Assembly (NCBI GenBank): GCA_964414215.1
Contig: CAYPVQ010000001.1
Location: 1 to 46,990, forward strand
From: an uncultured Candidatus Saccharibacteria bacterium
GTDB taxonomy: Bacteria; Patescibacteriota; Doudnabacteria; UBA920; 2-01-FULL-46-14
Direction: 5' to 3'
DNA: 46,990 bases
Made by a program: the position numbers and the translations under genes. Below, in pieces: positions 18,183-46,990 of the stretch. Under the pieces are notes generated by a model, which worked only from the letters and a program-made list of their open reading frames with translations, did no database searches and was not told the origin of the DNA. Numbering within the stretch: position 1 is the stretch's first letter; every line of letters starts with the position of its first letter.

Positions 18183-18324
18183 ATCACGAATCATGAATCA
18201 TGAATTACGGGGCAGCCCTCACTCTCTCCCCCTTTCCGCCGAAGGCGGATCTCAGCCGAAGGCTGACCAGCCTCCGGCTGGCGCAAAAGCCTCTGGCGGA
18301 AAAATAAGAGGGGTAGGGGGAGTT

Positions 18325-19452
18325 ATGAACCTAGTAACTTTAAGCATCATAATATCTTTATTCTGGCACCAAAAAGTCCTCGCCCCCTCTGCTCCTTCTC
18401 CCCCTGCTCCCCGATCTGAGGTCGGGGAGATAGGGGGAGACAAAGAGGGGGTTCAAACCATCCTCGCGGTCGGCGACATTCTCTTATCAAGAAACGTCGG
18501 CGCCAAGATTGACCAAGCCAATGATCCGACCCTGCCTTTTCAAAATCTCCAAGAGTTACTCGTAAGTGCCGACATCGCCTTTGGCAATCTCGAATGTCCG
18601 CTTTCAGATTCCCCCATCCCGATTCGCGAGGGACTAGTGTTTCGCTGTCTGACGAAATATGTTCCCGGATTAACATTCGCTGGATTTGATATTTTATCAA
18701 CTGCCAATAATCATGCGCTCGATCAGGGAACAAAATATGTTGGCTTTACCAGAGATTATTTATTTTCGCAAAATATCTTGCCAGTGGGCACTGGAGAAAA
18801 TCAAGACGAAGCATGGACTCCAGCCATTATTTCTCCTCACCCTACCCTCTCCTCTCAGAGGAGAGGGGGTGGGGGTGAGGAACCAAAAATCGCCTTCCTC
18901 GCCGTCTCCTATGCCTCCCACAACGACGGCGGCAAATCCCGCAACGATTATGTCGCGCGAATTGAAGATATTGAGATTCTAAAATCTAAAATCTTAAATC
19001 TAAAATCTTCCGACTACTTCGTCGTCGTCTCCATGCACGCCGGCACCGAATACACCCGCAACCCGAATCAAGAGCAGATTAATTTCGCCCACGCCGCCAT
19101 TGACGCCGGCGCCGACATTGTCATCGGCCACCACCCACATTGGATTCAGCCTGTAGAGGTGATAAAGCGAAAGGCCCCTGCCCCGTACCGAACCGAAGGT
19201 TCTGGTACTGGGGTCATCTTCTACTCCTTGGGCAATTTTATCTTTGACCAATCCTGGAGCCAGGAAACCAAAGAGGGACTGGTAGTAAAATTAAATATTA
19301 AATATCAAAAATCAAATATTCACTTGGAAAGCGCGGAACTCATTCCTGTGATCATCGAAAACAACTGCTGCCCGCGAATCGCGACAGAAGAAGAAAAAGA
19401 AAGAATCCTCAAAAAGATAAATCTCGAAACAGATACGCTATTCTTCCCCTAA
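18325..19452 (+). CDS. CapA-family (PGA-synthesis/metallophosphatase-like) protein carrying two palindromic insertions
   Basis: The start was trimmed to the ATG at 18325, preceded by GGGGGAG. Contains AVGDILLSR, FGNLECP, TANNHALD, SMHAGTEY and IGHHPH. Repeat-derived segments are at 18394-18452 (PPAPRSEVGEIGGDKEGV) and 18835-18880 (PHPTLSSQRRGGGGEE). Confidence 0.75.
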   Translation: MNLVTLSIIISLFWHQKVLAPSAPSPPAPRSEVGEIGGDKEGVQTILAVGDILLSRNVGAKIDQANDPTLPFQNLQELLVSADIAFGNLECPLSDSPIPIREGLVFRCLTKYVPGLTFAGFDILSTANNHALDQGTKYVGFTRDYLFSQNILPVGTGENQDEAWTPAIISPHPTLSSQRRGGGGEEPKIAFLAVSYASHNDGGKSRNDYVARIEDIEILKSKILNLKSSDYFVVVSMHAGTEYTRNPNQEQINFAHAAIDAGADIVIGHHPHWIQPVEVIKRKAPAPYRTEGSGTGVIFYSLGNFIFDQSWSQETKEGLVVKLNIKYQKSNIHLESAELIPVIIENNCCPRIATEEEKERILKKINLETDTLFFP

Positions 19453-20484
19453 CCACAATCCCTGCCAATTCAAAATCTCCTGCCGCAATTTGAAACTGTT
19501 GCCGTGGCTTAGCAAACCCAAATAGGACTGCAGGGTTTCATTGATGGGATGGTCACAGATTTTTCTAAATGCTCGCCGCTTTGTTGCCGCTCGTAAAACT
19601 CTATGATGCGGAAAATGCACCCATCCCAAAAAATCCACGCCTGAAGCCAACGGCTTGAGAATAATTTTGTCTGGATGCAGTGATAGACATAACCGCCGTT
19701 CCAAAAACCCTGAAATCTTACTAATCTGATCGGCTAGCCATTCGCGGTTTTCTGACAGCAAAACAAAATCGTCTGCGTAGCGGATATAGTATTTCGCTTT
19801 CAGCCCGTGCTTCACAAACTGATCAAGCTCATTGAGGTAAACGTTGCAGAATAACTGCGAGGTCAGATTCCCAAGCGGCAGACCTCGACCTATGTCATTC
19901 CCGACCTGATCGGGAATCCACAACATAGATTCCCGCTTTCGCGGGAATGACAGCACAATTTGCTCCAAAAGCCAAAGGATATTTTTATCCGGAATATAAG
20001 CTACCAAAATTTTCAGCAGGTTTGCATGATCAATGCTCGCGAAAAACCTTTTGATGTCTAGCTTCAGAACCCAAACAGTTTTGGTATTATTACTGCCAGC
20101 TTTTCGGCCAAATTCCCGCAAACGATTTAGTGCCTTATGGACTCCCCTGTTTAAGCGGCAAGAAAACGAATCAGCGATAAAAGTTCTGTCAAAAAACGGA
20201 TATAGCTGCCTGTAAATCGCGTGATGCAAAATCCTATCCCTCACCGCGGCCTTATGGATATTGCGCGGTTTCGGGTCAGAAATGTTAAAAGCATGGTAAC
20301 CGCCGTGCTCATAGGTAAAATTGGCAAGCTCGCTATGAAGCTGGACAAGGTGATCAGCGAGCCTTAAACTAAACTCCTGGACGTCTCGCTTGGCTCGTTT
20401 GCCAGGGATGAACTCCCGCCAGGCAGCCAGCAGGTTTTCCAGGGAAATAATCTCATCATAGGTTTTGTTAAATTGTTTCTTCAT
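19438..20484 (-). CDS. DGR-type reverse transcriptase
   Basis: 348 aa with RT motifs (LKLDIKRFFASIDH, GLPLGNLTSQLFCNVYL, YIRYADDFVLL, LGWVHF). The (I/L)GxxxSQ motif is typical of DGR RTs. An adjacent TR/VR pair and an Avd-like gene are present. Confidence 0.85.
   Translation of the reverse strand: MKKQFNKTYDEIISLENLLAAWREFIPGKRAKRDVQEFSLRLADHLVQLHSELANFTYEHGGYHAFNISDPKPRNIHKAAVRDRILHHAIYRQLYPFFDRTFIADSFSCRLNRGVHKALNRLREFGRKAGSNNTKTVWVLKLDIKRFFASIDHANLLKILVAYIPDKNILWLLEQIVLSFPRKRESMLWIPDQVGNDIGRGLPLGNLTSQLFCNVYLNELDQFVKHGLKAKYYIRYADDFVLLSENREWLADQISKISGFLERRLCLSLHPDKIILKPLASGVDFLGWVHFPHHRVLRAATKRRAFRKICDHPINETLQSYLGLLSHGNSFKLRQEILNWQGLWLGEE
19892..19952. repeat. 61-bp palindromic element (TIR tgtcattcccg / cgggaatgaca) inside the RT ORF
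   Basis: Encodes the extra segment (F)PRKRESMLWIPDQVGNDI just before GLPLGNLTSQ. The ORF continues through it. Related copies are at 20493-20580 and 40778-40836. Confidence 0.75.
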
Positions 20485-20492
20485 AGACGCAC

Positions 20493-20580
20493 TGTCATTC
20501 CCGATCTAATCGGGAATCCAGGTTCTGGATCCCCGTCGCAGTTTACTCTCGTGGAGACGGGGGGGGGGGCGGGAATGACA
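20493..20580. repeat. 88-bp element of the same family between RT and avd, containing a G11 tract
   Basis: Sequence tgtcattcccgatctaatcgggaatcc...cgggaatgaca. The G run spans 20559-20569. Confidence 0.75.
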
Positions 20581-20612
20581 AAAGATGAACTTTAAATTTT
20601 AAACTTTCCTTT

Positions 20613-20984
20613 ATGCCCCCCCCCAACGCAAATTTTTACACAACAACGGACTTACCCGTTGTCCAAAAAATTTCTACTGCTTTTAGACTATGGTATCAAT
20701 ACTTGCCGCACATTCCAAAATTGTTAAAACATTCGCTCGGCGAAAAAATCACTTCCCTGTTCATCCAGTTGGTTGAGCTAACTTTAATTGCCGGTTACTT
20801 CAGCAAAGACAAAAAACCAGAAATAATAAATAAGGCCATCCTGACATTGGATTTGCTAAAATACTTTCTGCAAATGGCCTTTGACGTGAAGGCCATTGAC
20901 AGCAAACAAACGGCATCAATAATTGCCCCGCTCGGTGAAGTTGGTAAAATGCTTGGCGGCTGGAAAAAACAATTGGCACAATAA
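20613..20984 (+). CDS. avd: Avd-like four-helix-bundle protein (DGR accessory variability determinant family)
   Basis: 123 aa with the helical pattern FRLWYQYLPHIPKLLKHSLGEKITSLFIQLVE...LDLLKYFLQMAFDVKAI...EVGKMLGGWKKQL. This is typical of the four-helix-bundle / 23S-IVS protein family to which Avd belongs. It lies between the RT and the TR but on the opposite strand. Confidence 0.7.
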   Translation: MPPPNANFYTTTDLPVVQKISTAFRLWYQYLPHIPKLLKHSLGEKITSLFIQLVELTLIAGYFSKDKKPEIINKAILTLDLLKYFLQMAFDVKAIDSKQTASIIAPLGEVGKMLGGWKKQLAQ

Positions 20985-21009
20985 ACCCTCTCTATGAAAA
21001 GAGAGGGTT
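20984..21009. terminator. 9-bp-stem hairpin between the avd stop and the TR
   Basis: aaccctctc-tatgaaaa-gagagggtt. It begins at the last base of the avd stop codon and ends 15 nt from the TR. Confidence 0.45.
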
Positions 21010-21024
21010 GTTCCCAACTTACTT

Positions 21025-21152
21025 GCGGACAGCGGGAAAACGATAGTTGTCGTTCCAGTCACCGGCCAGCTGATTCAGGTTGAGCTCGCGCTTCCTGTTC
21101 CAGTTGTTGAGCACCGGCGCACACTGGTTGTCGTTGTCATCGAGACAGACCG
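21025..21152 (-). repeat. DGR template repeat (TR)
   Basis: 128 bp, 115/128 identical to 21527-21654. It carries A (- strand) at every mismatch position. In the VR frame it reads VCLDDNDNQCAPVLNNWNRKRELNLNQLAGDWNDNYRFPAVR, with nine AAY Asn codons. Confidence 0.9.
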
Positions 21153-21425
21153 CCGTGAAATGTGCGATGCACCATCTATTACACTGCCTAAAGAATACTC
21201 TTTATGGCTGTATTTTATTTGCGGGGATTAAACCCGTCCAATGCACCGCACCGAGTTTCGTTGGAAACCTCTCTGCCAAGGAATACTCTGCCGCAAGCCG
21301 TAACCGGCGGCACTCTGATACTTGGCAGTGCGAGATAAACAATCCGAAAGTTTACCTGCCTTTGGCAGGCGTGCCCGCGGATTTTTCAAATTTATCTGGA
21401 TTTATTATAACAAACTTTCTAGAAC

Positions 21426-21474
21426 AAAAAAAGAACTCTTGGACCCCTGCAAAAAAACTGCAAGAGTCCAAGAG
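21426..21474 (-). terminator. intrinsic terminator downstream of the DGR target gene
   Basis: On the - strand, ctcttggac...gtccaagag (9-bp stem, 21474-21436) is followed by ttcttttttt. Confidence 0.6.
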
Positions 21475-21502
21475 CATAAGCACCATCGGAAGAGCCAAGG
21501 AT

Positions 21503-22165
21503 CTAAGTGTCCAAGAACTCTTCCTCGCGGACAGCGGGAAAACGATAGTAGCCGTGCCAGTCACCGGCCAGCTGAAGCAGGTCGAGCTCGCGCTCCCGGC
21601 TCCAGTTGTTGAGCACCGGCGCACACTGGCGGGCGATGTCATCGAGACAGACCGATGCCTCATCCAATAGCACGAGCGGGTTCTGCCGCTGACGTTCCGG
21701 GAACTTATAACCAATACCTGTTCCGTCGTCCAAATCACAGGGCCGGTCGCCAGTCTCCTTCATCCGCCGCTTCATCTCCTCGGTGGAGGCGTAGCCGCCC
21801 GGATTGTAGAGAACTATACGGCGGCGCATCCTGCGCTTCAGCTTGGATTTGTCCACCGTGATGTTCGGGTGGACGCCTCCTTTGAAATCGCAGAGCCGCA
21901 GACGTTCCGGGAACGAAACGGCCGGGTCAAGCTCGATCCAGCCCAGCTCCTCAACCTCTTCCTTGGGTTTGGGTGCAGGATGTTCCGCTTCCGGCTTCGG
22001 TGGCCGAGCGGCGATGGAAAGCGCCGCGATCTGCGGAGCTAAACTCTCCAGTCTAGCCACGTCGTCATCGTCACCATCGGCAGCGAGTATGGCATCAATA
22101 ACCGCATTAACAATAACGGTCATCTTCCCCCACCCGCGTCGAAAATCACTCTTTTTTTGAGCCAT
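21503..22165 (-). CDS. DGR target (variable) protein
   Basis: The start was trimmed to the ATG at 22165, preceded by GAGGAGG. 220 aa with an acidic/Pro-rich linker (DGDDDDV...PPKPEAEHPAPKPKEEVEE). The C-terminal ~42 aa are VR-encoded. A sample line was hand-counted at 57% GC, against 43% for a line in the LCP gene. Confidence 0.8.
   Translation of the reverse strand: MAQKKSDFRRGWGKMTVIVNAVIDAILAADGDDDDVARLESLAPQIAALSIAARPPKPEAEHPAPKPKEEVEELGWIELDPAVSFPERLRLCDFKGGVHPNITVDKSKLKRRMRRRIVLYNPGGYASTEEMKRRMKETGDRPCDLDDGTGIGYKFPERQRQNPLVLLDEASVCLDDIARQCAPVLNNWSRERELDLLQLAGDWHGYYRFPAVREEEFLDT
21527..21654 (-). repeat. DGR variable repeat (VR) at the 3' end of the target gene
   Basis: Encodes VCLDDIARQCAPVLNNWSRERELDLLQLAGDWHGYYRFPAVR. 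It has 13 substitutions relative to the TR, all at TR adenines, and ends 21 nt before the stop codon. Confidence 0.9.
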
Positions 22166-22365: not shown

Positions 22366-23446
22366 TGTACTAGATGACTACATCGGTAACAAGGGTCTGC
22401 TGGAAGTGGTATGCAAAGGGGGTTAAATAATTAAGGGATTGGTGAGGCCGGTAGCAGTTGTATTTGAGTAGCCATTTGGCGAGCTTGCGGTTGAACTCCT
22501 GGACATCTGCCGTCCAGTTCCCTTGCCGCAGAAACTCCTGCTTCAGAATGCCGCTTCAATCGTTCACAGACAGGGTTGTCTTTAGCGGTCTTGACCCGGG
22601 AGAAGTACTGGGGAATATCCAGGCTCTGCAAGGTCTTGGCAAACTCCTTTTCAAACTCACTCCCGTTATCCTGGCAGGTATTGAGGATGTTTCCTTTAGC
22701 TACCGCATAGAGTCGGATGAACAGGTCTTTGGCCGTGGCCGAGGAATGGGTTGTGTACATTCTTGCCCAGGCAATCTTGCTGACCGTATCTATGCCGGTG
22801 ACAATGTATCGGCGCAGTCCATTGCGGTGCAGAACAATGCTGTCAAAAGCCACCAGGAAGCCAGGGGTTTGCTGTTTCGTGAGTTCAATGGTTTTCCGCT
22901 TGGATACCGCCTGTTTTTTGAATTGCCGGTCAGTCTTTCCTGGTCTCCTCTGTAGATGGTACTTCTCAATCACCCGCTGGATTTTCCAGGAGGAGATGCG
23001 TTCGGGGTTCTCCCGTTCGTAGATGGCTTTGAGTTTCATCTTGCCATACTCGGGATTGAGATGTCGGAGGGCGAGGATACGATTCTCCTCAAGACGGGTG
23101 ATTTGAATATCCCGCCTGGTGACGGGGGCGCGGGATCCCTCCTCCAGAGATTTAAGGTTAACCAGGTCAAAAACAGCCTGCCATTTGTAGAAGGTTTTGG
23201 GAGTGATACCAAAATACCTGGCAGTTCTGCGGGCGTTCTTTTGGCCCCGGGTACGGTAATAGATAAACCACTCCAACTTCTGCTTGGCCTTAGAAGAAAG
23301 CTTCAACAGGGCAGCCTGTCTGCGCCAACGATCATATTGGTTTAACAAAGGACGGTCTTTCCAGAGAGGTTTGAGATAGAAATTCATGGCAACTCCTTTC
23401 TTTGCTATTCTAGCAAAGGTGTTACCGATGTATCTCATCTTTTACA
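22366..23446 (-). mobile_element. IS481-like insertion sequence (1081 bp)
   Basis: Imperfect terminal inverted repeats: tgtactagatgactacatcggtaaca (22366-22391) against the reverse complement of 23420-23446 (tgtaaaagatgagatacatcggtaaca). About 22 positions match, including a 12-bp perfect core. It is flanked by a direct repeat tgccg (22361-22365 and 23447-23451). Confidence 0.75.
22370..23387 (-). pseudogene. DDE (rve/integrase-type) transposase with a +1 frameshift near 22550
   Basis: The ATG at 23387 is preceded by GGAG. HTH region, FDSIV...QDNGSEF...NPVCER DDE core. After CERLKR the conserved continuation ILKQEFLRQGNWTADVQEFNRKLAKWLLKYNCYRPHQSLNYLTP is in the next frame and ends at 22370. 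Confidence 0.75.
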
Positions 23447-24100: not shown

Positions 24101-26275
24101 TTATAGAGACTTGCGGCGCAAGAACAGAGCATTTACGGCAACAATCACAGTGCTCAAAGACATAAACACCGCGGCTAGGGCCGGCTCGAGGAGAATTCCT
24201 TTTGATGCCAAAACCCCGGCCGCCAGAGGAAGCGCTATCACATTGTAGCCAGTTGCCCAAAAAAGATTCTGGATCATCTTGGTATAGGTAAGGCGCGACA
24301 GTTTAATAATTCTCACGATGTCGCGCGGATCGTTTTTGACCAAAATTATTCCGGCGGATTCAATGGCCACATTGGTGCCCGCGCCAATCGCCACTCCCAA
24401 ATCAGCTTGGGTCAAAGCCGGAGCATCGTTTACCCCATCGCCAATCACGGCAACTTTTAACCCGCGGCTCTGCAAGAGCTTGACCTTTTGAGCTTTTTCC
24501 GAGGGCAAAACTTTGGCAAAGTGCTCGTCTATCCCAAGTGTGGCGGCAACCCAAGCAGCAACGTCTTCGGAATCCCCGGTAATCATCGCGGTTTTTAATC
24601 CCATTGCTTTCAAAGCCCCGATAGCGCTTTTTGATTCCTCACGAATGACATCTGCTAAGGCAATAGCGCCAATTAATTTTCGTTCGGCAATCACATAGGT
24701 CACAGTCTTACCCTGACTTGCCAATTGGCCAATTTGTTTTCGCAAATTCTCGACCACATTTTCGGGAAATTTCGCATTCGCTTCCTGCAGCAAAAGTTCG
24801 TTGCCGACCACAATCTTTTTCCCCTCAATTTCGCCTCGAGCCCCTTTGCCCGCAATCCGTTGAAAATTTTTGACTTCCATAAGTTTTAACCCGCGCTGTC
24901 TTGCCTCCCCCGTCATGGCCTTGGCGATTGGGTGTTCCGAATGACTATTAACCGAGGCGGCAAGCCGCAACACTTCGGCTTCGGAAGCCTTCGCAACCGG
25001 GATTATGGTATCCACGCCAAATTCACCGCGGGTTAAAGTTCCGGTTTTGTCAAATAGCACTATGTCAATTCGCCTCGCTGCCTCCAAAGCCAGCCTTTGT
25101 TTTATTAAAAGTCCGTTTCGGGCGGCCATAGTTGTGGAAATCGAAGCCACGAGCGGAACCGCCAATCCCAAAGCGTGCGGGCAGGTAATAACCAGCACGG
25201 CGACCAGTCTCTCGGTTGCAAAAACCATTCCGGCTTTGGCCACGAGCCAGAGGACAAAAGTCAAGGTGCCGGTTGCGAGGGCGAGCTGAGTAGGATAGAA
25301 GGCAGTGCGGTCAGTGAGAAGTTGTGGGCGCGATTTCGAAGGTTTAGCTTCCGCAACAAGTCTCATCACGCCAGCCTATAACGTATTTTCGCCAAGTTGA
25401 TTGACCCGGATCTGAAGGCTTCCGTCGCCATTGATGGTTCCCGCAATGACCTCACTGCCAATAGCTTTGGAAACTGGCCGTGATTCGCCGGTTGCAATGG
25501 CTTCATTGACTTCTGATTTTCCTTCGATCACCTCGCCGTCAGCGGCAATTTTCCCTCCCGGCCTTGCCAAGATAACATCGCCAAGCTTGAGCTCCGAAAG
25601 CGGCACGGTTTCGGTTTTTGAGCTCCGGATTACTTCGGCTGTATCAGGAAGAAGTTTGGAAAGTTCTTTTAAGGCACTTTGCGCGCCGCGCACTGCCCGC
25701 ATCTCAAGCCAGTGCCCGAGGAGCATGATGGTAATAAGTGTCGTAAGCTCCCAAAAGAGCGTATGTTCCGGCTCGCCAAATGTTGCCTGCCCGCCGAAGC
25801 CTTGTCGAAGGAGGGCGTAAATGCTGTAAAAGTACGCCGCCGAGATAGCAATGGCAATTAGCGTCATCATGCCGGGAAGCTTGGCTTTAAGCTCCCTTAA
25901 GGCGCCTACTAGAAATACCCAGCCGCCGTAAAAAAACACAATTGAGCCCAGAGCAAGCGGCAAATATTCCGAACCTGCAAATTGCGGAGCCTTGAAGCCC
26001 AAAAGCTTTTGCGCAATGTCAGAATAAAGCACGACCGGAATAGTCAAGATCAAACTCACCCAAAATTTACGCAAGAACATAGCCAAACTATGCCCTTCGT
26101 GCTTATCGTGATGTTTGTTTTGCGCTTTGCGTTTTGCGTTTTTCGCTTCTAGCAAATTCATCCCGCACTCCGAACACATCCCGGGCTTATCCCGCATAAC
26201 CTCCGGATGCATGGGGCAGGTATAATAAATTACATTGGTATTATGCTGGTGGTGCATATGTGTTCTCCCTTTCAA
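24101..26275 (-). pseudogene. P1B-type heavy-metal P-type ATPase (CPH-motif, CopB-like) interrupted by one in-frame TAG
   Basis: N-terminal part (25376-26275): His-rich start, YYTCPMHPEV...CSECGMNL metal-binding domain and the TGES actuator motif. C-terminal part (24101-25369): CPH, DKTGTLT and GDGVNDAP. The junction reads GENTL-TAG-AGVMRLVAEA in a single frame (TAG at 25376-25378). Confidence 0.85.
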
Positions 26276-29609: not shown

Positions 29610-29712
29610 ACCCCGTTAGACAATACTTGTTACCATAATTTTACCTTGCTTGCCTATAGATATTTAATGACCAAGATAAGACCCTGCTTGGCAAATTATT
29701 GTCTAACGGGGT
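29610..29712. repeat. 16-bp inverted repeat (accccgttagacaata / tattgtctaacggggt) enclosing 71 nt
   Basis: Read directly. The arms share ccccgttaga...tctaacg with the short hairpin at 16210-16232 just after the LCP gene. Confidence 0.6.
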
Positions 29713-29818
29713 TGACAAAAAAACAAAAACCTAGTAAAAGTTAAACTTATGAATTGCGAAGTCTCATAACTCACCCTCCCCTCTCTTATCTTAAGAGGGG
29801 GTTACGGGTCCCAATTCT

Positions 29819-32104
29819 ATGCCAAAGCTAGTTGTGGTGGAGAGCCCCACAAAAGCAAGGACAATCAGCAAATTTTTAGGCAAGGATTACAAGATCGAAT
29901 CCTCGTTTGGCCATATCCGCGATCTGCCGAAGAGCAAAATGGGCATTGATATTGCGCATGATTTTGCGCCCGAATATGTCATTCCCAAAGAGGCTGCCAA
30001 AAGAGTAGCGGCCCTGAAAAAACTCGCTAAGTCAGCGCCAGAAATAATTCTGGCGACTGACGAAGACCGCGAAGGAGAAGCTATTGCCTGGCATTTAACG
30101 CAAGCCCTCGGGCTTGCCACCCAAATTCCCTCGCCCCTCGCGGGAGAGGGTGCCCGAGCGAAGTCGAGGGCGGGTGAGGGGGGCAAAGCAATTAAAAGGA
30201 TCGTATTTCACGAAATCACCAAAACTGCCATTGAAGAAGCCCTCAAAAATCCTCGCGAGATTGATATAAAACTCGTGGACGCCCAGCAAGCGCGGCGCAT
30301 CTTGGACCGTCTCGTGGGCTATGAACTTTCGCCTTTTTTGTGGAAAAAAGTCAAAGCCGGTTTGTCGGCCGGCCGGGTGCAGTCAGTAGCTTTGCGTCTC
30401 ATTGTCGAGCGCGAGCGGGAGATTGAGAAATTTAAGCCTCGGGAATACTGGACCATTGAAGCCCGGTTGTCGCCTGCTACCCCCTCTTCATCTCCCCCTT
30501 CTCCCCTTCGGGAGAGAGGGGGAGAAAGAGTGGGGGTATTCACGGCCAAACTTCACAGCATTGAAGGCAACGCTCTCAAAAAATTTGATCTGGGAGATAA
30601 AGCCAGTTCCGACAAAATCATCGCTGATCTCAAAGGCGCCAGTTACCAAGTTGCCGAGATCGCAGAAAAAGAAGCCAGACGCTATCCGGCCGCCCCCTTC
30701 ACCACCTCCACTCTCCAGCAGGAAGCCGCACGCAAACTTGGTCTTTCAGCCAAACAAACCATGATGTATGCACAGCAGCTTTACGAGACTGGCTACATCA
30801 CTTACATGCGCACGGACTCGGTAAATATCGCGGAGCAATCGCTCAGGCAAGCTCAGCGAGTCATTGAGGAAAAATTTGGCAAAAATTATGTATTGAGTTC
30901 CCCGCGCCGCTACAAAACCAAAACCAAAGGAGCGCAAGAAGCTCACGAAGCCATTAGGCCCACTGATCTCTCGCAGGATTCACAAATTCTGGAAGGCACG
31001 CTCGAAAAAAGGCAAGCCCAGCTTTATGACCTCATTTGGAAACGTGCCATTGCCTCCCAAATGCCCGAGGCGGTATTTGATCAGACTGTGGTGGATATTA
31101 CAACAACCCCCTCACCCCGCCCGAGTACGGGCGTACCCTCTCCCGCGAGGGGCGAGGGGAAAAAGGAATATTCTTTTCGCGCCACAGGCCAAGTCCTCAA
31201 ATTTGACGGCTTTATCAAAGTCTATACCGAAGGCCGGGACGAAAAAGATGAAGAAGAACTCGCCGAGGGTGAACTTCCGAAACTACAGAAATCTGAAATC
31301 CTCAATCTCGTATCCTTGGACGGCAAACAGCATTTTACCGAACCGCCGCCGCGATACACTGACGCGACCTTGGTCAAAACTTTGGAAGAATACGGCATCG
31401 GCCGTCCTTCAACCTACGCGCCGACCATCTCGACGATTCTTGAAAGAAAATATGTCGAGCGCAGGGAGCGAAAATTTCATCCAACCGAAATCGGGGTCGT
31501 GGTCAATGATCTCTTGGTCGAGCATTTCCCCAAAATCGTGGATTACCAATTCACGGCCCACATGGAAAAAGAGCTTGACGATATTGCAGAAGGCAAGCTC
31601 AAGTGGCAGCCGGTAATTAAAGAATTCTACGATCCCTTCAAAAAAAATCTCGAAGAAAAAAAGGCCACGGTCGAAAAACAAGTTCAGGCAACGATTGTGC
31701 CTTGCCCCAAGTGCGGCAAACTCATGGTCATTAAGTTTGGCAGATTTGGCCAATTTCTGGCCTGCCCAGATTTTCCTAAATGCAAAGGAACCAAGCCCTT
31801 GCCAGCAGAAGAAGCAGCCCAAAAAAAATTAGAATCAGAAGTAGGGGGTAAGACTTGTCCGAAATGCGGGGAAGGAACACTGGTGGTAAGACGCGGCAAA
31901 TTTGGCTATTTCCTCGGCTGTTCTCGCTATCCCGAGTGCAAACACATTGAAAAGATCGAGAAAAAAACCGGGGTGGTTTGCGAAAAGTGTCAGGAGGGCG
32001 AACTCGTCGAGAAACGCACGCGCAAAGGCCGCACCTTCTGGGGCTGCAACCGCTATCCCGAGTGTGAATATGCCACCTGGCAGTATCCGGGAAAGAAAAC
32101 TTAA
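29819..32104 (+). CDS. topA: DNA topoisomerase I with three in-frame palindromic-element insertions
   Basis: Toprim start (MPKLVVVESPTKARTISKFLG), DEDREGEAIAWH, active-site region YITYMRTDS, and C-terminal Cys4 zinc ribbons. Insertions are at 30127-30184, 30479-30537 and 31107-31160. Confidence 0.9.
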   Translation: MPKLVVVESPTKARTISKFLGKDYKIESSFGHIRDLPKSKMGIDIAHDFAPEYVIPKEAAKRVAALKKLAKSAPEIILATDEDREGEAIAWHLTQALGLATQIPSPLAGEGARAKSRAGEGGKAIKRIVFHEITKTAIEEALKNPREIDIKLVDAQQARRILDRLVGYELSPFLWKKVKAGLSAGRVQSVALRLIVEREREIEKFKPREYWTIEARLSPATPSSSPPSPLRERGGERVGVFTAKLHSIEGNALKKFDLGDKASSDKIIADLKGASYQVAEIAEKEARRYPAAPFTTSTLQQEAARKLGLSAKQTMMYAQQLYETGYITYMRTDSVNIAEQSLRQAQRVIEEKFGKNYVLSSPRRYKTKTKGAQEAHEAIRPTDLSQDSQILEGTLEKRQAQLYDLIWKRAIASQMPEAVFDQTVVDITTTPSPRPSTGVPSPARGEGKKEYSFRATGQVLKFDGFIKVYTEGRDEKDEEELAEGELPKLQKSEILNLVSLDGKQHFTEPPPRYTDATLVKTLEEYGIGRPSTYAPTISTILERKYVERRERKFHPTEIGVVVNDLLVEHFPKIVDYQFTAHMEKELDDIAEGKLKWQPVIKEFYDPFKKNLEEKKATVEKQVQATIVPCPKCGKLMVIKFGRFGQFLACPDFPKCKGTKPLPAEEAAQKKLESEVGGKTCPKCGEGTLVVRRGKFGYFLGCSRYPECKHIEKIEKKTGVVCEKCQEGELVEKRTRKGRTFWGCNRYPECEYATWQYPGKKT
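30127..30184 (+). repeat. palindromic element family 2 inside topA (PSPLAGEGARAKSRAGEGG)
   Basis: Sequence tccctcgcccctcgcgggagagggtgcccgagcgaagtcgagggcgggtgagggggg. Its ends match the reverse complement of the 31107-31160 copy. Confidence 0.75.
30479..30537 (+). repeat. palindromic element family 1 inside topA (PSSSPPSPLRERGGERVG)
   Basis: Sequence accccctcttcatctccccc...gggggagaaagagtgggggt. It has the same terminal sequence as 6169-6229. Confidence 0.8.
31107..31160 (-). repeat. palindromic element family 2 inside topA, opposite orientation (PSPRPSTGVPSPARGEGK)
   Basis: Its reverse complement reads cccctcgcccctcgcgggagagggtacgcccgtactcgggcggggtgaggggg. This aligns with 30127-30184 apart from the central loop. 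Confidence 0.75.
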
Positions 32105-33759: not shown

Positions 33760-34221
33760 TTATTTCCAAATCACAATCAATCTTCGAATTATCAAGTCGT
33801 TTTTGTTTCGCAAGAAATCCCCGGGAAAATCAAACCACACCCGCTGGAAAGTTTGCCGGTCAATCCTGCGCGGCCTACCCCACTCGGGGTCTTGCAGATA
33901 AATATATTTTCTATCCAGGCCTACGGCGACCGAATAATGCCCGTCGTCCTCGGAAAACCAGTCCACGATCACGGGAATGCCCCGCGTGAGATATTTGCGA
34001 ATATCCTCAAAAGTGGCGAAATTTTTGACACTTGCCTTGAGGCCCAGCTTTTTGGCCGCGCGCACGAGCCCCGCGGCTTCAACTCCACGCGGGCGTGTGG
34101 CTCCAGATAATTTTACCAAAGCCGCCTCGCTTCTGCGCACGCCAAAAAACTCCAGCACCATTTTAAGCGACGCCGGCCCGCAGTATCCCGTGGTTTGGCG
34201 AAAGGATTTGACTTTGAGCAT
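33760..34221 (-). CDS. stand-alone papain-like peptidase, C39-like family
   Basis: 153 aa. QTTGYCGPASLKMVLEFFG (catalytic Cys context), DDGHYSVAVG (His) and YLQDP. Confidence 0.7.
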   Translation of the reverse strand: MLKVKSFRQTTGYCGPASLKMVLEFFGVRRSEAALVKLSGATRPRGVEAAGLVRAAKKLGLKASVKNFATFEDIRKYLTRGIPVIVDWFSEDDGHYSVAVGLDRKYIYLQDPEWGRPRRIDRQTFQRVWFDFPGDFLRNKNDLIIRRLIVIWK

Positions 34222-34226
34222 AAATA

Positions 34227-34550: not shown

Positions 34551-34736
34551 AAACCAATTCTACCAAAAAACCGCTCCCTTTCCTATACCCTCTCCCCTCT
34601 GTGGGAGGGGGTGAGGTGGAAAAGCCTCGTCGATCGGCCAACCTGAAGCCTCTTTCAACCACTCTATCAAAAACTTTGCCCACCTCGCTGAAACAACAGC
34701 AAAGTGGGCAATACTAGAACAAACAACCGATGGACA

Positions 34737-35944: not shown

Positions 35945-36010
35945 AACCATCCGCAAGCTCGCCGGCCCGCAATACCCCGTGGTTTGGCGAAAGGATTTGA
36001 CTTTGAGCAT
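35945..36010 (-). pseudogene. duplicated 5' fragment (22 codons) of the C39-like peptidase gene
   Basis: 35961-36010 matches 34172-34221 at 48/50 nt. It translates MLKVKSFRQTTGYCGPASLRMV and then diverges. Confidence 0.8.
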
Positions 36011-36148
36011 TAATTTAATTCTACCAAAAAACGCCTCGGTGAGGCAGGCGCCGCAAAAGGGAGTTGTGCTGGAACTTGATTAAATCAACCCTAGTCTTTG
36101 AAGATCATCCTCTATCCACCGCGCCTGCATCTCAATCATACTTTTCAA

Positions 36149-36926: not shown

Positions 36927-37100
36927 TTTTGATTTTTTATTTTTAATTTTTGAACTTATTATCTATCCCGCTTCCCGATTGGCTTTATGGCCTAGGAGCA
37001 ACAGCAGAACAATGGGTGCTAAGGCCGAGTAGAAAAGCACGGTGTTGCTGACAAATCCCCTCGACCGCAGATCGGGAAGCAGGGGGAGAAAGGGTGTTTT

Positions 37101-38335: not shown

Positions 38336-40178
38336 TCATTTTTTCTCTTCAAACTTCGCGTCTTCGGGCTTATCTTTGTTTTTGTCTTCCCCGGTCTGCG
38401 TTTGTCCGCGGTCCCCTTCCTGTCCGTGCTTGTCTGCGTCTTTGTACATCGCGGCACCAACCTTCTGGACCTCCTGACTTATCTCATCCATCTGTTTTTT
38501 GATGGCCTCGACGTCATTGCCGTCTTTGATTTTTTTAAGTTCTGCCACCTTTGTCTCCAGAGAAGTCTTGGTCGCGGCGTCAACTTTATCACCCGCATCT
38601 TTCAAAGTTTTTTCCACCACGTGGATCAGCTGGTCAGCTTGGTTGCGGGTATCAATTAATTCGCGGCGCTGACGGTCCTCTGCCGCATGGGCTTCGGCTT
38701 CTTTTTTCATGCGCTCAATTTCCTCTTTGGAGAGATTGGACGAGCCGGAAATCGTGATGTGCTGTTCTTTGCTGGTAGCCTTGTCCTTGGCCGTAACTTT
38801 CAAAATCCCGTTGGCATCAATGTCAAATGCAACCTCGACCTGCGGGATACCGCGCGGGGCGGGCGGAATGCCGTCGAGAATAAATCGGCCCAAAGATTTA
38901 TTGTCCGCGGCCATGGGCCGTTCGCCCTGGAGCACGTGAATCTCAACCGAAGTCTGACTATCTGAGGCCGTGGAAAAAACTTGAGACTTGGCTGTGGGGA
39001 TAGTGGTATTACGCTCAATGAGCGGGGTAGCCACGCCGCCCAAAGTTTCAATTCCTAAAGTTAGAGGAGTGACATCAAGAAGCAGTACATCCTTGACTTC
39101 TCCGCCCAAAACTCCGGCCTGAATCGCCGCCCCTTTGGCCACGGCCTCCATGGGATCAACCCCACGTTCAACTTTTTTCCCCAAAAAATCTTCAACAAAT
39201 TTTTGGACCAAGGGCATACGCGTCGGGCCACCAACCATAATAATTTTGTCAACTTCTTGCGGGGAGAGTTTGGCATCCGCTAAAGCCTGCTCAATGGAGC
39301 CGCGCGTTCGCTCCACAATTGGTTTAACTAACTCTTCGAGTTTGGCCCGGGTAATTTTCATGGTCAAATGCCGCGGCCCTGTCTGCCGTGATAAACGGCA
39401 GATTGAGCTCCGTCTCAAGCGTAGTCGAGAGTTCAATCTTGGCTTTTTCCCCGGCTTCTTTGAGCCGGTTAAAGGCCATTTTGTCACTGCGGACATCGAT
39501 GCCCGAATCCTTTTTGAATTCACTGGCAATATAGTCAATGATGACATTATCCATGTCTGTGCCGCCCAAGTGCGTGTCTCCCGAAGTCGACACGACCTCA
39601 AAAACTCCCTGGCCAAAATCCATGATCGTGACATCCAAAGTCCCGCCGCCAAAATCAAAAACCATAATTTTTTGTTCGGCTCCGGCTTTGTCCAGGCCAT
39701 AGGCCAGCGCCGCGGCCGTAGGCTCGTTAATAATCCGGATCACTTCCAATCCCGCAATCTCGCCAGCATTTTTTGTTGCTTGCCTCTGCGCATCATCAAA
39801 ATAAGCCGGAACCGTAATCACGGCTTGCTTGAGTGGGGTACCCAAATAAGCTTCGGCATCTCGTTTAATTTTTTGCAAAATAAAAGCGGAGATTTGTTCC
39901 GGGGTATATTCTTTAGTGCGCAACGCAATTTTTTCTTTAGTACCCATCTTGCGCTTGACCGCATAAGCTGTGCCTTCGGGATTGGTTACCGCCTGGCGCC
40001 TCGCTGGTTCGCCAACCAAAAGTTCGCCATCTTTCGCAATGGCCACATATGAAGGAAAAGCTTTACCGCCCCCGACAGTAGTCCCCTCGGCCGAAGGGAT
40101 AATCACCGGCTTGCCGCCTTCAAGCACAGCGGCGGCACTGTTGGAAGTTCCTAAATCGATTCCGATAATTTTGGGCAT
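38336..40178 (-). pseudogene. dnaK: molecular chaperone DnaK, reading frame broken near 39380
   Basis: The N-terminal ORF (39324-40178; [19 protein letters not shown]) is correct up to ...LPFITAD. The conserved continuation [18 protein letters not shown]...GGPTRMP... is in the frame of the 38336-39700 ORF. Only one nt separates gac (D) from ggg (G). Confidence 0.85.
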
Positions 40179-40308
40179 AAATGAATCCTTTCAAAAATTA
40201 ATTCCAAATATCAAATTACAAATTTCAAATCAATGACTAAAGCTCAAACTTGTTTTTGTCATTTGGATGTTGGGCTTGATTTGACATTTGATATTTGTAA
40301 TTTGAAAT

Positions 40309-40770
40309 TTATTTGGCGACCTTGACCTTTGCTGCTCTAATTACCTTCCCATTCAACTTGTATCCCGCCTGAACCTCTTCGACAATGATCCCCGAATCCC
40401 CGCCCTCCACCATCTCCACGGCTTCGTGCAGTTCATGATTAAACTTCTCACCCACGGACTTGATCTTCTCAATACCCATTTCCAATAAAACTTTCTCCAA
40501 TTGCTGGACAATCTTTATCACTCCTTCTGACCAATTTTTAAATTTCTCATCAGCAGGGGCTTGCTTTAAAGCTTGCTCCAAACTTTCCAGAGTCGGCAAC
40601 ATTTTGACGACCGTAATTTCCTGGGCGAATTGGACGATCTCTTTGGCTTCTTTCTCTTGCCGCTTCTTGTAATTCTCAAAATCCGCGGCCGTGCGCTTCC
40701 AGGCGTTTAGGTATTCGTCAGCTTTTTGCTTATATTCGGCTAATTCTGGATTTTCTTGATCGTTGCTCAT
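40309..40770 (-). CDS. grpE: nucleotide exchange factor GrpE
   Basis: 153 aa. KRTAADFENYKKRQEKE followed by the C-terminal beta domain (HEAVEMVE...VQAGYKLNGKVIRAAKVKV). Confidence 0.85.
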   Translation of the reverse strand: MSNDQENPELAEYKQKADEYLNAWKRTAADFENYKKRQEKEAKEIVQFAQEITVVKMLPTLESLEQALKQAPADEKFKNWSEGVIKIVQQLEKVLLEMGIEKIKSVGEKFNHELHEAVEMVEGGDSGIIVEEVQAGYKLNGKVIRAAKVKVAK

Positions 40771-40777
40771 ATCTCTT

Positions 40778-40836
40778 TGTCACTCCCGCGAAGGCGGGAG
40801 TCCATTCTTACTGGATCCCCGCCTGCGCGGGGATGC
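40778..40836. repeat. double-hairpin element between hrcA and grpE (tgtcactcccgcgaaggcgggagtcc...ggatccccgcctgcgcggggatgca)
   Basis: Read directly. Same architecture as the elements at 19892-19952 and 20493-20580. Confidence 0.7.
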
Positions 40837-40838
40837 AA

Positions 40839-41570: not shown

Positions 41571-41650
41571 ATTATCTTCCGTGCTTTCTCCCTCTCCTTT
41601 CAAGGAAGGGGGAGACAAAGAGGGGGTAAGTTCCAAATATTATTATACTT

Positions 41651-41677
41651 TTAGCACTCGACCCTGTCAAGTGCTAA
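41651..41677. promoter_or_regulatory. CIRCE operator (HrcA binding site)
   Basis: TTAGCACTC-N9-AAGTGCTAA compared with the consensus TTAGCACTC-N9-GAGTGCTAA (one mismatch). It is upstream of hrcA. Confidence 0.85.
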
Positions 41678-42603: not shown

Positions 42604-45495
42604 TTATCGATTCACAAGTACTCTTTTCAAGTACTGCCCGGTGTAACTTTTCTTGACCATGGCAACTTCTTCAGGGGTGCCCTCGGCCACGAGGTAACCG
42701 CCCTTTTCCCCGCCCTCCGGCCCCAAATCAATAACCCAGTCCGCATATTTAATCACGTGCAAATTGTGCTCAATCACAATTACAGTGTTGCCTTTGTCCA
42801 CGAGTTTGGTAAGGACATCCAAAAGCCGCTTCACATCATCAAAATGCAAACCCGTGGTCGGCTCATCCAAAATGTACAAGGTTTTGCCAGTCTGCATCCG
42901 CGAAAGTTCGGTTGAGAGTTTAATGCGCTGGGCTTCTCCGCCCGAGAGCGTGGTGGCCGGTTGCCCCAAATGCATATAGCCTAGGCCCACCAGTGACAGC
43001 ACGTCGAGTTTGCGGAAAATCGCCGGAATATTGCGGAAAAAAATCCGCGCCTCATCCACAGTCATTTCCAAAACATCGGCAATGGTTTGGCCTTTGTAGT
43101 GAATGTCCAGGGCCTCTTTGTTGTAGCGCTGGCCCTTGCACTCCTCGCAAGTCACATACACGTCTGGCAGAAAGTGCATCTCAATTTGAATGACGCCGTC
43201 GCCCGCACAAACCTCGCACCGCCCGCCTTTGACATTGAAAGAAAACCTCCCTGGGTGATAGCCGCGCATCCGCGCCTCGGGCGTTGCGGCAAACAAGTCG
43301 CGGATATAGGTAAAGACGCCGGTGTAAGTGGCCGAATTAGAACGGGGGGTGCGGCCAATGGGCGATTGATCAATACTGATGACTTTATCAATATGGTCTA
43401 ATCCCAAAATCTTTTTATGCTCCCCAGGAGCGTCTTTGGCATTGTAAAAGTAAGAGGCCAAGGCCTTGGCCAAAATATCATTTAAGAGCGTGGATTTGCC
43501 CGAACCAGACACGCCGGTGATGCAGATAAATTTTCCCAAAGGAATGTCCACGTTGAGGTTTTGCAGATTGTGTTCAACCGCTCCCATAATTGAGAGCTTC
43601 CGGCCATTCCCAGGGCGGCGGCGAGTGGGTACCGGAATAATTTCCAGACGGGCTAAATATTTGCCCGTGAGAGAGGTCGGGTGCTTTTTGATGGCTTGCG
43701 GCGGGCCAGCCGCGACCACCTCGCCGCCGTGTTTGCCAGCACCAGGGCCAATATCCACGACCCAATCTGCGGAAAGAATCATCTCTTCGTCATGTTCCAC
43801 CACAATTACGGTATTACCCAAATCCCGCAATGCTTTGAGTGTTGCTAAAAGCCTCGCATTATCACGCTGGTGAAGACCAATTGAGGGTTCGTCTAAAATA
43901 TACAAAACCCCGGTTAAGCCTGAACCAATCTGGGTCGCAAGTCTAATCCGCTGCGCTTCGCCTCCGGAGAGAGTATCAGCCGAGCGAGCCAGGGTGAGAT
44001 ACTCCAGTCCCACATTTTGTAAAAATCGTAAGCGGGCCCGAATCTCTTTGAGGATTTGTTTGGCAATCTTTTTTTCTTTGTCAGTAAGTTTTTTTTCCAA
44101 ATCTTCAAAAAAGTCTTGCAAGGCTCCGACATTCATGGCCGCGACATCAGTGATTGATTTTTGCGCGACCGTTACGGCCAAAACCTCGGGCCGCAAGCGC
44201 TTGCCGCGGCAAGTTGGGCAAAGCTTGAGGCGCATATACTGCTCAATCTCGCTTCGCATATAGTCAGAATCAGTCTCTTTGTACCGGCGCATGAGATTGG
44301 GAATTACTCCTTCAAAATCCCCCTCCCCATAGAGCACGAGATTAATGTATTTCTGGTCGAGATTTTTGACTGGCTCCATGGTGGAGAAGCCGTGATCTTG
44401 GGCGACTTCTTCGAGAATGCGGTCGTACCACGAAAGCCGGGCCGTGGTCTTGCTCCACGGCCGGATCGCCCCTTCTGCCAAAGATAAGCGCGGGTTAGGG
44501 ATAACTAGTTCGGGATCAACCTCCAGTTTTGTGCCGAGTCCCGTACAATCTGGACAAGCCCCGTGCGGAGAATTAAAGGAAAAATTTCGCGGATGAAGTT
44601 CTGGCAAAGCGACATGGCCCTCGGGACAGGCAAACTTTTGCGAGAGGATAATTTCTTTGTAACCCTCTCCGTTGCCTGCCCGCCTCTGGAGGGAGGGGAG
44701 GGGGGCGCCCGCAGGGAGGGAGGGGTCTTTACCAACAATTACGAGAATGGCTGTCTCATTTCCCAAATCCAGAGCCGTCTCCAGAGAATCGGCAATTCGA
44801 GCCCGGTCTTTTTTTTCCACGGTCAGCCGATCCACGACTACGTCAATCGAATGCTTTTTCTTTTTATCAAGATTCAAGGTCAAAGCCTCACCGAGATCCA
44901 TGAACGTGCCATCAAGGCGGACTCTCGCGTACCCCGCTTTTTTAATTTCTTCTAAAATGTGTTTGTGCTCCCCTTTGCGGTCTTGAACAAAAGGTGAAAG
45001 CAGGATAATTTTGGTACCCTCTGGATAGCCCAAAATTTGATCCGCCATTTGCGTCACGCTCTGGCCGGAAATTTTTTTGCGGCAAACCGGGCAGTGCGGC
45101 ACCCCAATGCGCGCAAACAGCAGACGCAGGTAATCGTAAATCTCGGTGACAGTGCCCACGGTGGAGCGCGGATTGTGAGAGGCTGATTTTTGGTCAATGG
45201 AAATCGCGGGCGAGAGTCCTTCAATCTGCTCGACATCAGGCTTGTCCATGAGACCCAAAAACTGCCTAGCATAAGCCGAGAGGCTTTCTACATATCGGCG
45301 CTGGCCCTCGGCATAAATCGTGTCAAAAGCCAGAGAAGATTTACCTGAACCAGAAATGCCGGTAAAGACAATTAATTTATGACGCGGCAAATCCACATCA
45401 ATATTTTTGAGATTGTGCACCTTGGCGCCGCGGATCCGGATGAGGCCAAATTCTGCTTTGTCTATAGACTTTGCTTTGGAATTGAGATTTTTCAC
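42604..45495 (-). CDS. uvrA: excinuclease ABC subunit UvrA with one in-frame palindromic insertion
   Basis: 963 aa with two ABC ATPase modules ([26 protein letters not shown] twice) and zinc modules. GTG start. Inserted segment [22 protein letters not shown]. Confidence 0.9.
44663..44727. repeat. GC-rich palindromic element inside uvrA
   Basis: Sequence accctctccgttgcctgcccgcctctggagggaggggaggggggcgcccgcagggagggaggggt. Confidence 0.7.
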
Positions 45496-46446: not shown

Positions 46447-46520
46447 CCTCCTCCAGATTTGCCTCTATTTAATACCCAATCCGCACTGTTGTCAATGATA
46501 ATTATTGTCATTCCTTCATT

Positions 46521-46602
46521 CCTCCCCTAGAATAGGGGAGGTTAGGAGGGGTAGATTTAGCGCCATTAATACCTCCCCTTCCCCCTCCTATTCTAGGAGG
46601 GG
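46521..46602. repeat. ~82-bp compound palindrome upstream of uvrC
   Basis: It contains cctcccctagaataggggagg (46521-41) and cccctcctattctaggagggg (46582-602). An inner pair, ttaggaggggta / tacctcccctt, lies between them. Confidence 0.7.
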
Positions 46603-46620
46603 AACAAAAACCGCAACTAC

Positions 46621-46990
46621 AATGCCTAACTTGTCCAATAAACTCAAATCCCTTCCCCAAAAGCCCGGGGTTTATCTATTTAAAGATTCCCAGGGCGAGG
46701 TTTTGTATGTGGGTAAAGCCAAGAATCTAAAAAAGCGGGTACAGAGTTATTTCACCCCTCACCCTCCCCTCTCCCCCAAGGGGCGAGGGTTAAGGAGGGA
46801 AATCGCTGATCTGGACTATATCATCGTCTCCTCGGAACTTGAAAGCCTGATGCTGGAGAATAACCTCATCAAGCAGTACCGGCCGCGGTTTAATGTCCGA
46901 TTGCGCGATGACAAAAATTATCAGTTTATAAAAATTGATTATTCTTACGAGATCCCGCAGATATATACTGTTCGCAAAATAACCCCCTCT
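46621..46990 (+). CDS. uvrC: excinuclease ABC subunit UvrC, 5' partial (runs off the window)
   Basis: The ATG at 46621 is followed by the GIY-YIG domain (KPGVYLFKDSQGEVLYVGKAKNLKKRV...LENNLIKQYRPRFN). An in-frame palindromic insert is at 46754-46800 (PHPPLSPKGRGLRRE). Confidence 0.85.

Follow-up and report, generated by a model that had tools for sequence, protein, structure and literature searches.

We report here that the topA gene of an uncultured bacterium of the Doudnabacteria lineage carries three GC-rich palindromic repeats in frame within its coding sequence. The gene lies on contig CAYPVQ010000001.1, the whole 46,990-nucleotide stretch of which was analysed and is called the window in this text. 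We consider it probable that the three segments are dispersed short palindromic repeats that entered the gene at the level of DNA, and that their persistence was set by where and how they landed. The open reading frame (ORF) at 29819-32104 on the (+) strand is uninterrupted and codes for a type IA DNA topoisomerase I of 761 amino acids (aa), with a Toprim domain, a Topoisom_bac domain, three Zn-ribbon domains and the active-site motif GYITYMRTDS. Its nearest database matches are TopA proteins of Candidatus Doudnabacteria and other Patescibacteria. The GC content of inserts 1, 2 and 3 is 0.79, 0.62 and 0.78, respectively, as compared to 0.51 for topA as a whole. A previous inspection of the bare letters, referred to here as the sequence-only reading, had described three palindromic elements inserted in frame in topA. 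This observation was confirmed in the intact ORF. The encoded peptides were as it had given them (PSSSPPSPLRERGGERVG, named for insert 2, corresponds to aa 222-239 and nt 30482-30535), and its coordinates for the inserts were correct to within 1-3 nt. Its interpretation of the segments is likewise supported, all of its testable parts having held.

Inserts 1 and 3, which had been taken for one family in opposite orientations, are indeed related in this manner. Positions 30128-30151 and 31135-31158 are complementary over 24/24 nt, and the two inserts have the outer arm GGG(C)GGG(G)TGAGGGGG in common. The sole difference between them lies in the central mini-hairpin, which is GCCCGAGCGAAGTCGAGGGC in insert 1 and GCCCGTACTCGGGC in insert 3. 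The predicted fold of insert 3 consists of two inner hairpins enclosed by an outer stem (-30.8 kcal/mol, z = -2.7). Insert 2 forms an almost perfect hairpin of 25 bp (-46.4 kcal/mol, z = -4.7 versus shuffled sequences), and follows a three-block grammar on both of its strands. A mirror purine block, the sequence grammar expected of a triplex, is present in all three inserts.

Judged by their blocks, inserts 1 and 3 belong to the cross-phylum BoxC class of repeats, an identity that was not recognised in the sequence-only reading; their second loop carries an additional mini-hairpin. BoxC is the same as the PIT (potential intrastrand triplex) element and as TMECO, a G/C-rich intrastrand triplex motif of the pattern CCCTCNCCC-N3-6-GGGNGAGGG-N3-GGGNGAGGG, of which 3610 were counted in 262 proteobacterial genomes and 23 in strain MG1655 (Holder et al. 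2015, PMC4666352). Copies of TMECO in E. coli are always intergenic and are not associated with transposons, the triplex has been formed in vitro, and the motif has been linked to local genomic instability (PMC4666352). According to the summary given in the same paper, PIT elements neither acted as promoters or terminators in vivo nor blocked polymerase there. In the window, CCCTCNCCC-N3-6-GGGNGAGGG was found exactly at 30128-30150, 31136-31158 and 46767-46789. When a second loop of 2-25 nt was allowed, the full TMECO pattern was found in insert 1 (+), in insert 3 (-) and at 46756-46789. Neither form of the pattern occurred in 100 shuffles.

The likeness to BoxC/PIT/TMECO thus comprises the blocks CCCTCNCCC, GGGNGAGGG and mirror GGGNGAGGG in inserts 1 and 3, as well as the dispersed, multi-copy occurrence of the repeats, sometimes as inverted pairs, with no associated transposase. 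Inserts 1 and 3 and the element at 46756-46789 all have the second G stem, but the loop that precedes it measures 21 nt in insert 1, 18 nt in insert 3 and 2 nt at 46756-46789, in place of the published 3 nt, and holds a mini-hairpin of its own in the topA copies; these elements are therefore variants and not canonical TMECO. There are other differences as well. E. coli copies are reported to be always intergenic, whereas the ORF of topA contains inserts 1 and 3, which are putatively translated, and a related element lies in the PGA_cap gene. The host is a member of Patescibacteria with about 48% GC, in contrast to the 262 proteobacterial genomes of the published survey. The density of elements in the window is far higher, but was obtained by a scan that differs from that of the survey.

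Direct sequence similarity to E. coli BoxC copies was also found. Metagenome contigs were scanned for exact copies of the 23-nt core that inserts 1 and 3 have in common; at least 120 stretches matched, of which the 80 examined ranged in GC from 38% to 72%. In most of the metagenome matches listed, the module CCCCTCACCC was present upstream of the core, in some cases with a variable mini-hairpin between the two modules. A 42-nt consensus of the core and the CCCCTCACCC module matched 5398 of 5426 complete E. coli genomes, at a median of 16 places each, and 560 plasmid records from Rhizobium, Klebsiella, Sinorhizobium, Azospirillum, Escherichia and others. In MG1655, one such copy lies upstream of fabI and has the sequence CCCCTCACCCTAACCCTCTCCCCAGAGGGGCGAGGGG; the window has CCCCTCACCCTCCCCTCTCCCCCAAGGGGCGAGGG at 46755-46789. 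Full-length insert 3 showed 80-84% identity with intergenic repeats of Azospirillum. The core was further detected within long open frames elsewhere (L110:2217-3341, L086:2-1288, L112:10388-11761 and L109:3535-5310). Among the metagenome contigs (L086-L165), those with the core in frame had GC of 0.38 to 0.68, with the peptides PHPIPLPQGERE, SPLPLRERARVRG, PSPQPSPARGEG and PSPLAGEG. L086 and L110 are low-GC groundwater contigs, and the gene on L112 is Kdo-transferase-like. Since the core occurs in apparently real genes of other organisms, in-frame BoxC-like copies are not confined to this genome. The literature covered, which takes in few subscription journals, gave no account of BoxC-type or other palindromic repeats translated in genes of the Candidate Phyla Radiation (CPR), and none of BoxC or MITE elements in this group.

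Insert 2 belongs to an apparently clade-specific family of long hairpins on the same block grammar, which we call family B. It had been assigned to a family that also occurs between genes, and such intergenic relatives were identified: the 23-nt 5' arm of insert 2, CTACCCCCTCTTCATCTCCCCCT, is identical in the copy at 6169-6224, and insert 2 aligns with the reverse complement of 774-829. In all, the window has at least five copies besides insert 2, mostly intergenic (Table 1), and family B was also found at topA site 1 of the relative L012. The copy at 18396-18452, in the PGA_cap gene, has an orientation relative to its gene opposite to that of insert 2. No match to family B was obtained in the plasmid collection; the family is therefore apparently clade-specific.

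The composition of the elements explains how they can lie in reading frames without closing them. A run of only C/T or only G/A excludes TAA, TAG and TGA in any frame, so that stops can arise only at the loops and block junctions. As the arms are almost purely pyrimidine and then purine, five of the six frames are open and peptides of the type Pro/Ser…Gly/Glu/Arg are encoded either way. The reverse complement keeps the pyrimidine-then-purine arrangement, and hence the pyrimidine arm is read first in both orientations. One family read in differing frames and orientations gives PSPLAGEG, PSPARGEG and PLPQGER. The suggestion that either orientation is free of stop codons thus holds as far as composition explains the open frames, but only 5/6 frames are open in each insert; a TGA within GGGTGAGGG shuts one frame of six.

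To follow the inserts across lineages, the 26 closest TopA proteins (66-75% identity) were aligned. Most of them have nothing at the three insert positions, and a codon alignment of seven topA genes revealed precise empty sites in relatives at the DNA level. P0003, the nearest relative in a quick neighbour-joining tree, has none of the three GC-rich inserts. The orthologue alignment thereby confirmed that the inserts are lineage-specific, as had been anticipated. The same sites are occupied by different GC-rich hairpins in P0002/L012, P0015 and P0019 (site 1), in P0007 and P0023 (site 2), and in P0005, P0007, P0015 and P0022 (site 3). Family B swaps location, being at site 1 in L012 and at site 2 in the topA gene of the window. 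Among 120 Patescibacteria TopA proteins, 8 or more extra residues were found in 25, 18 and 19 at sites 1, 2 and 3, respectively. Many of these extra segments are Pro/Ser-rich and then Gly/Glu/Arg-rich, the type encoded by the present hairpins. A-rich tandem repeats with a period of 6-7 nt (AAATCAAAAATCA…, CCAAACCCCAAACC…) likewise lie in frame at TopA site 1 of relatives, where they encode KSKIKNQKS, NPKPQTPNPK and NSKSQIPNP, the carriers in the codon alignment being L083, L084, L085 and L012. Intergenic A-rich repeats at 19287-19317 and 40195-40314 of the window resemble them. The A-rich tandem repeats, which are not palindromic, make up a second type of repeat found to enter reading frames.

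Insert 3 was also present, at the identical codon, in P0010/L081, which belongs to a different clade, the other members of which are without it. The two copies of insert 3 are 88% identical at the nucleotide level, as compared to 69% for the gene as a whole. We also considered whether the window and L081 have a recombination tract in common around insert 3, and rejected this: the flanks are 77-81% identical, versus 75% with L083 in these same stretches and 69% gene-wide, and such flank identity, near the L083 level, indicates no long transferred tract. The distribution of the inserts is at odds with simple vertical descent and fits independent acquisition or local transfer. Alternatively, an old insert may have been conserved and lost several times.

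In the alignment with E. coli TopA, the three inserts correspond to gaps or to loops of very short length. In an AlphaFold2 model of TopA, built on the 26-sequence alignment, coil with pLDDT < 50 is seen at residues 103-121, 223-237 and 434-447, flanked by H84-96/E125-129, E209-219/E241-248 and E418-430/E451-462, respectively. These flanking elements put insert 1 after a Toprim helix and inserts 2 and 3 at the tips of beta-hairpins. The model thus places all three inserts in disordered loops. Low-confidence coil between regular elements, together with the gaps relative to E. coli TopA, agrees with a position in surface loops, which the sequence-only reading had suggested as a check.

We envisage that elements with the grammar pyrimidine block - loop - purine block (- mirror purine block) would spread at the level of DNA and would then have landed in frame in three structurally permissive loops of topA. 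A copy arriving out of frame or within a structured region of an essential protein would be lost, and one arriving in frame in a tolerant loop would be retained, selection acting as a filter on where copies persist. The product would be a flexible linker with a Pro/Ser/Leu-rich start and a Gly/Glu/Arg-rich end. Most probably, such copies are passengers, either selfish or close to neutral. Ribosomes would read straight through the inserts, and TopA would stay active. Each of the in-gene copies leaves the frame downstream of it unchanged and is itself free of stops in that frame, from which we infer translation and not skipping.

Several points weigh against this account. The inserts are only putatively translated. 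For insert 1, the predicted fold is not more stable than those of shuffled sequences (z = -0.23). Its second loop of 21 nt, and that of 18 nt in insert 3, depart from the published 3 nt, and the triplex is a predicted one. No target-site duplication was found on comparing filled and empty topA sites in the seven-gene codon alignment, and no terminal repeats distinct from the palindrome were found. A Pfam search of about 36 ORFs of the window for a mobilising enzyme returned only the reverse transcriptase of a diversity-generating retroelement (DGR) and an rve-like integrase, both unlinked to the repeats. With no target-site duplication, distinct terminal repeats or transposase, the word mobile is therefore drawn solely from the distribution of the copies. 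The AlphaFold2 model is of moderate confidence overall (mean pLDDT 68.8, pTM 0.35). Since dnaK has a frameshift and an ATPase gene has a stop codon in frame, the sequence quality of the contig is not guaranteed. Conservation of insert 3 across two lineages could reflect selection on its sequence and not recent insertion.

Another explanation, which we regard as improbable, is that the in-gene elements are kept for a useful nucleic-acid structure, with the peptide as a by-product. Candidate roles are pausing of transcription or translation, stabilisation of mRNA as in REP/BIME, or a hot spot of triplex-induced recombination and variation. Besides the 88% identity of insert 3 between lineages with 69% identical topA, this explanation would be favoured by the near-perfect 25-bp hairpin maintained in insert 2, by reuse of the same three loops across the 120 Patescibacteria TopA proteins, by the tie between TMECO sites and local genomic instability (Holder et al., PMC4666352), and by the elements that lie at gene ends and 5' leaders (6169-6224, 37055-37096, 29767-29801 and 41587-41628). 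However, most close relatives thrive without any insert, and the unrelated sequences seen in the same loops fit tolerance and not a specific function. Decayed in-gene copies no longer fold, as in uvrA (z = +1.0) and insert 1, and the inactivity of PIT elements in vivo as promoter, terminator or polymerase block, as summarised in PMC4666352, also argues against it. That the inserts are present in DNA but bypassed by the ribosome or cut from the RNA is very improbable. Strong GC-rich hairpins do occur here inside coding sequence, and bypassed GC-rich inserts have precedents in the 'byp' elements of Magnusiomyces mitochondria and in the gap of T4 gene 60. Neither a kept frame nor an open frame is needed under bypass or excision, yet the frame is kept and free of stops in topA (three inserts), pth, PGA_cap (two), uvrA, the reverse transcriptase and ten L084/L085 copies; no take-off and landing codon pairs or intron-like features were seen, and no Rfam family matched.

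Hardly any credence can be given to the notion that the segments are ordinary loops of low complexity, specific to the lineage and generated on the spot through slippage or mutational bias, and that they resemble the intergenic copies through a coincidence of composition. Loop lengths do vary across Patescibacteria and many of the variants form no hairpin, but the notion is already contradicted by sequence identities: 24/24 nt of reverse-complement identity between two loops of one gene, an exact 23-nt arm common to insert 2 and an intergenic copy, and a 23-nt core found also in at least 120 metagenome contigs and in E. coli. Moreover, the TMECO pattern had 0 matches in shuffles and the other shuffle scans gave 0-2. 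An artefact of assembly or binning, whereby reads of other BoxC-bearing bacteria were spliced into a low-GC contig, is just as hard to credit. In favour of it, many bacteria that were possibly in the same sample commonly carry the core motif, and the contig has defects in dnaK and the ATPase gene. Against this, the same gene continues in the same frame on both sides of each insert, comparable inserts are present in independent NCBI, ENA and Logan assemblies, and family B, compared with the plasmid collection, has no match outside the clade. The entry of dispersed repeats at the DNA level, and their persistence in tolerant loops, is thus the explanation that we prefer. A broader proposal, which is unlikely though not far-fetched, is that BoxC/PIT-type repeats form one cross-phylum class of mobile DNA, possibly with structure-directed copying, that ORFs of Patescibacteria are routinely colonised by them, and that repeated use of the three TopA loops, with one element variant at one and the same codon in two lineages that are not sisters, reflects targeted or recombinational insertion beyond selection alone. 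If this were true, BoxC/PIT-type repeats would be a general source of new protein loops.

The sequence-only reading had drawn a parallel with the Rickettsia palindromic elements, which are about 100-150 bp long, with a conserved peptide for each family (Ogata et al. 2000, 2002, via PMC10969869). As far as they are described there, those elements likewise lie between genes and also, in frame, inside a number of unrelated genes, are compatible with the protein fold, to which they add extra peptide segments (presumed to be translated in the present case), and reside in reduced-genome, host-dependent bacteria, as the present host probably is. The present elements differ from that description in measuring 54-60 nt, in using all three frames and both orientations, and in having pure pyrimidine and then purine arms with a triplex-type third block. 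Thus, the parallel stands for behaviour, namely in-frame, fold-compatible insertion, but not for membership, given the difference in length and the use of several frames.

Similarity to REP/BIME and MITE elements is seen in the short, GC-rich, hairpin-forming and dispersed nature of the repeats, often at gene ends; the differences are the absence of target-site duplication and of hairpin-independent terminal inverted repeats, and the frequent insertion into coding sequence. MITEs are recognised by a target-site duplication and by terminal inverted repeats related to an insertion sequence (IS) element, and REP/RAYT systems by extragenic palindromes of 20-40 nt along with a Y1 (IS200/IS605-like) RAYT gene. 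The 47 kb window showed no duplicated flank, no IS or transposase matching the elements and no RAYT/Y1 transposase domain among its ORFs, and unlike REP/RAYT the elements are not restricted to extragenic space. GC clusters are known in var1 of yeast mitochondria. Coding palindromes occur in mitochondrial genes of Nematomorpha (PMC6649704), and Cod-2 of Corynebacterium diphtheriae is a very small repeat found in various coding sequences, giving different peptides according to frame (PMC2267715). These, too, are hairpin repeats embedded in reading frames and translated, but in other hosts and with other sequences, and the triplex-motif blocks of BoxC have not been reported for them.

The phenomenon reaches well past topA and past this genome, which had been missed earlier. 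A scan of the window for three-block elements (pyrimidine stem, complementary purine stem and mirror purine stem) gave 13 matches at 11 loci, all three topA inserts included, versus 0-2 in shuffles. Hairpins of the window were arranged pyrimidine-to-purine in 14 cases versus 1 in the reverse arrangement, with 0-2 in 20 shuffles. The window and its close relatives had such hairpins at a density of about 2-4 per 10 kb, as compared to 0.11 per 10 kb in 59 non-CPR loci, and Doudnabacteria at a greater distance had almost none. In the window, coding copies number about 8 out of about 20, and non-coding ones about 11. The in-frame copies comprise three in topA, two in PGA_cap and one each in pth and uvrA; that in the reverse transcriptase belongs to a different, third palindrome family and is read as …SFPRKRESMLWIPDQVGND…. 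A peptide like that of the third family, RRPELDSGP, was found at TopA site 3 of the relatives P0015 and P0008. The pth insert amounts to about 17-22 extra residues as compared to a relative, and the uvrA element is a decayed pyrimidine/purine copy that folds poorly. In gene-called relatives, 7/7 hairpins (L084) and 3/4 hairpins (L085) lay within genes. Within this branch of the Patescibacteria, it is common for repeats of this type to lie inside reading frames. Rfam analysis of the whole window at the gathering threshold, and of 29700-31300 at a permissive one, detected only two tRNAs and chance microRNA-like hairpin matches, and no family for the elements.

Table 1. Repeat elements of the window, with the DGR and its neighbouring integrase.
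Feature	Position	Strand	Remarks
topA insert 1	30128-30184	+	aa 104-122, peptide PSPLAGEGARAKSRAGEGG; BoxC/TMECO-like three-block element; G-rich blocks on coding strand; 21-nt second loop with mini-hairpin
topA insert 2	30479-30538	+	about aa 221-240, peptide TPSSSPPSPLRERGGERVGV; family B long pyrimidine/purine hairpin
topA insert 3	31107-31160	-	aa 431-448 (nt 31109-31162), peptide PSPRPSTGVPSPARGEGK; insert 1 family reversed; 18-nt second loop containing mini-hairpin
Family B copy	774-829	-	intergenic
Family B copy	6169-6224	+	intergenic, 5 nt beyond ribonucleotide reductase stop codon
Family B copy	18396-18452	-	in frame in PGA_cap gene, peptide PSPPAPRSEVGEIGGDKEG
Family B copy, 5'-truncated	37055-37096	+	immediately after dnaJ stop codon
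Family B-related copy	41587-41628	-	CIRCE operator on one side, likely hrcA start codon on the other
Peptidyl-tRNA hydrolase (pth) insert	16519-16584	+	tandem hairpins at 16546-16575; …SPYGRSPEGR…
BoxC-like palindromic triplex-type element	18831-18885	+	in frame in PGA_cap domain, peptide SPHPTLSSQRRGGGGEEP
Triplex-type hairpin	29767-29801	-	non-coding, 18 nt before topA start codon
Triplex-type hairpin	34571-34615	-	intergenic
UvrA insert	44668-44730	-	21 aa, gap relative to Geobacillus UvrA structure
Inverted pair, triplex-type	46519-46604		CCTCCCC-TAGAATA-GGGGAGG-TTA-GGAGGGG and partner
Near-canonical BoxC/TMECO-like element	46755-46789	-	CCCTCGCCC-CTTGG-GGGAGAGGG-GA-GGGTGAGGG; apparently intergenic
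Third palindrome family	19893-19952, 20493-20535, 40778-40837		TGTCATTCCCG…CGGGAATGACA
DGR reverse transcriptase	19441-20484	-	
DGR bAvd-like accessory gene	20613-20981	+	
DGR direct repeat pair, 135 nt	21018-21152 and 21520-21654		89% identical; looks like template/variable repeat pair
rve-like integrase	22434-23438		adjoins DGR

These results extend the BoxC/PIT triplex-motif repeats to the CPR and into essential genes. To our knowledge, these repeats, known for 30 years, are still without a function. After Rickettsia, this would be the second clear bacterial case of selfish palindromes that are translated, as deduced here from the frames, and it offers a simple rule, that pure pyrimidine/purine arms encode no stop codon in either orientation. 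Natural filled and empty alleles of one and the same loop provide a route to testing instability or triplex formation in cells. The inserts inflate and fragment alignments of CPR proteins and may confound models of these proteins. Gene callers may also report false N-terminal extensions, as the PGA_cap and hrcA genes show. Stop-free repeats before the true starts (18166-18324 and 41571-41636) extend the ORF calls, such that the PGA_cap ORF begins 53 codons upstream of its likely start (MNLVTLS… at 18325) and the hrcA ORF begins 22 codons upstream of its likely ATG. A CIRCE-like operator, TTAGCACTCGACCCTGTCAAGTGCTAA, is present at 41651-41677, upstream of hrcA-grpE-dnaK-dnaJ, and the family B-related element is inserted between this operator and the start codon.

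The dnaK gene (38336-40178, minus strand) consists of two overlapping ORFs with a single frameshift at about 39381-39382, and each half shares 82-89% identity with a DnaK that is intact in a relative. The split represents either a sequencing error or a real frameshift; causation by an element was considered and dropped, there being a single indel at about 39381 and no repeat at that place. A heavy-metal P-type ATPase gene at 24101-26275 (minus strand) has one in-frame TAG at 25376-25378 (…GENTL*AGVMR…), which may be due to a pseudogene, an error or a recoded codon. The DGR extends over 19438-21670. An AT-richer palindrome of 34-47 nt with the centre TGTTACCATGGTAACA is present in three intergenic copies (863-909, 2054-2099 and 2411-2460), close to genes for a HisG-like protein and an aspartate/ornithine carbamoyltransferase, and is operator-like in appearance. 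Finally, a 55-nt direct repeat (34171-34225 and 35960-36014) occurs as two 95% identical copies 1.8 kb apart, and the region between them contains small ORFs, including a PIN-domain gene.

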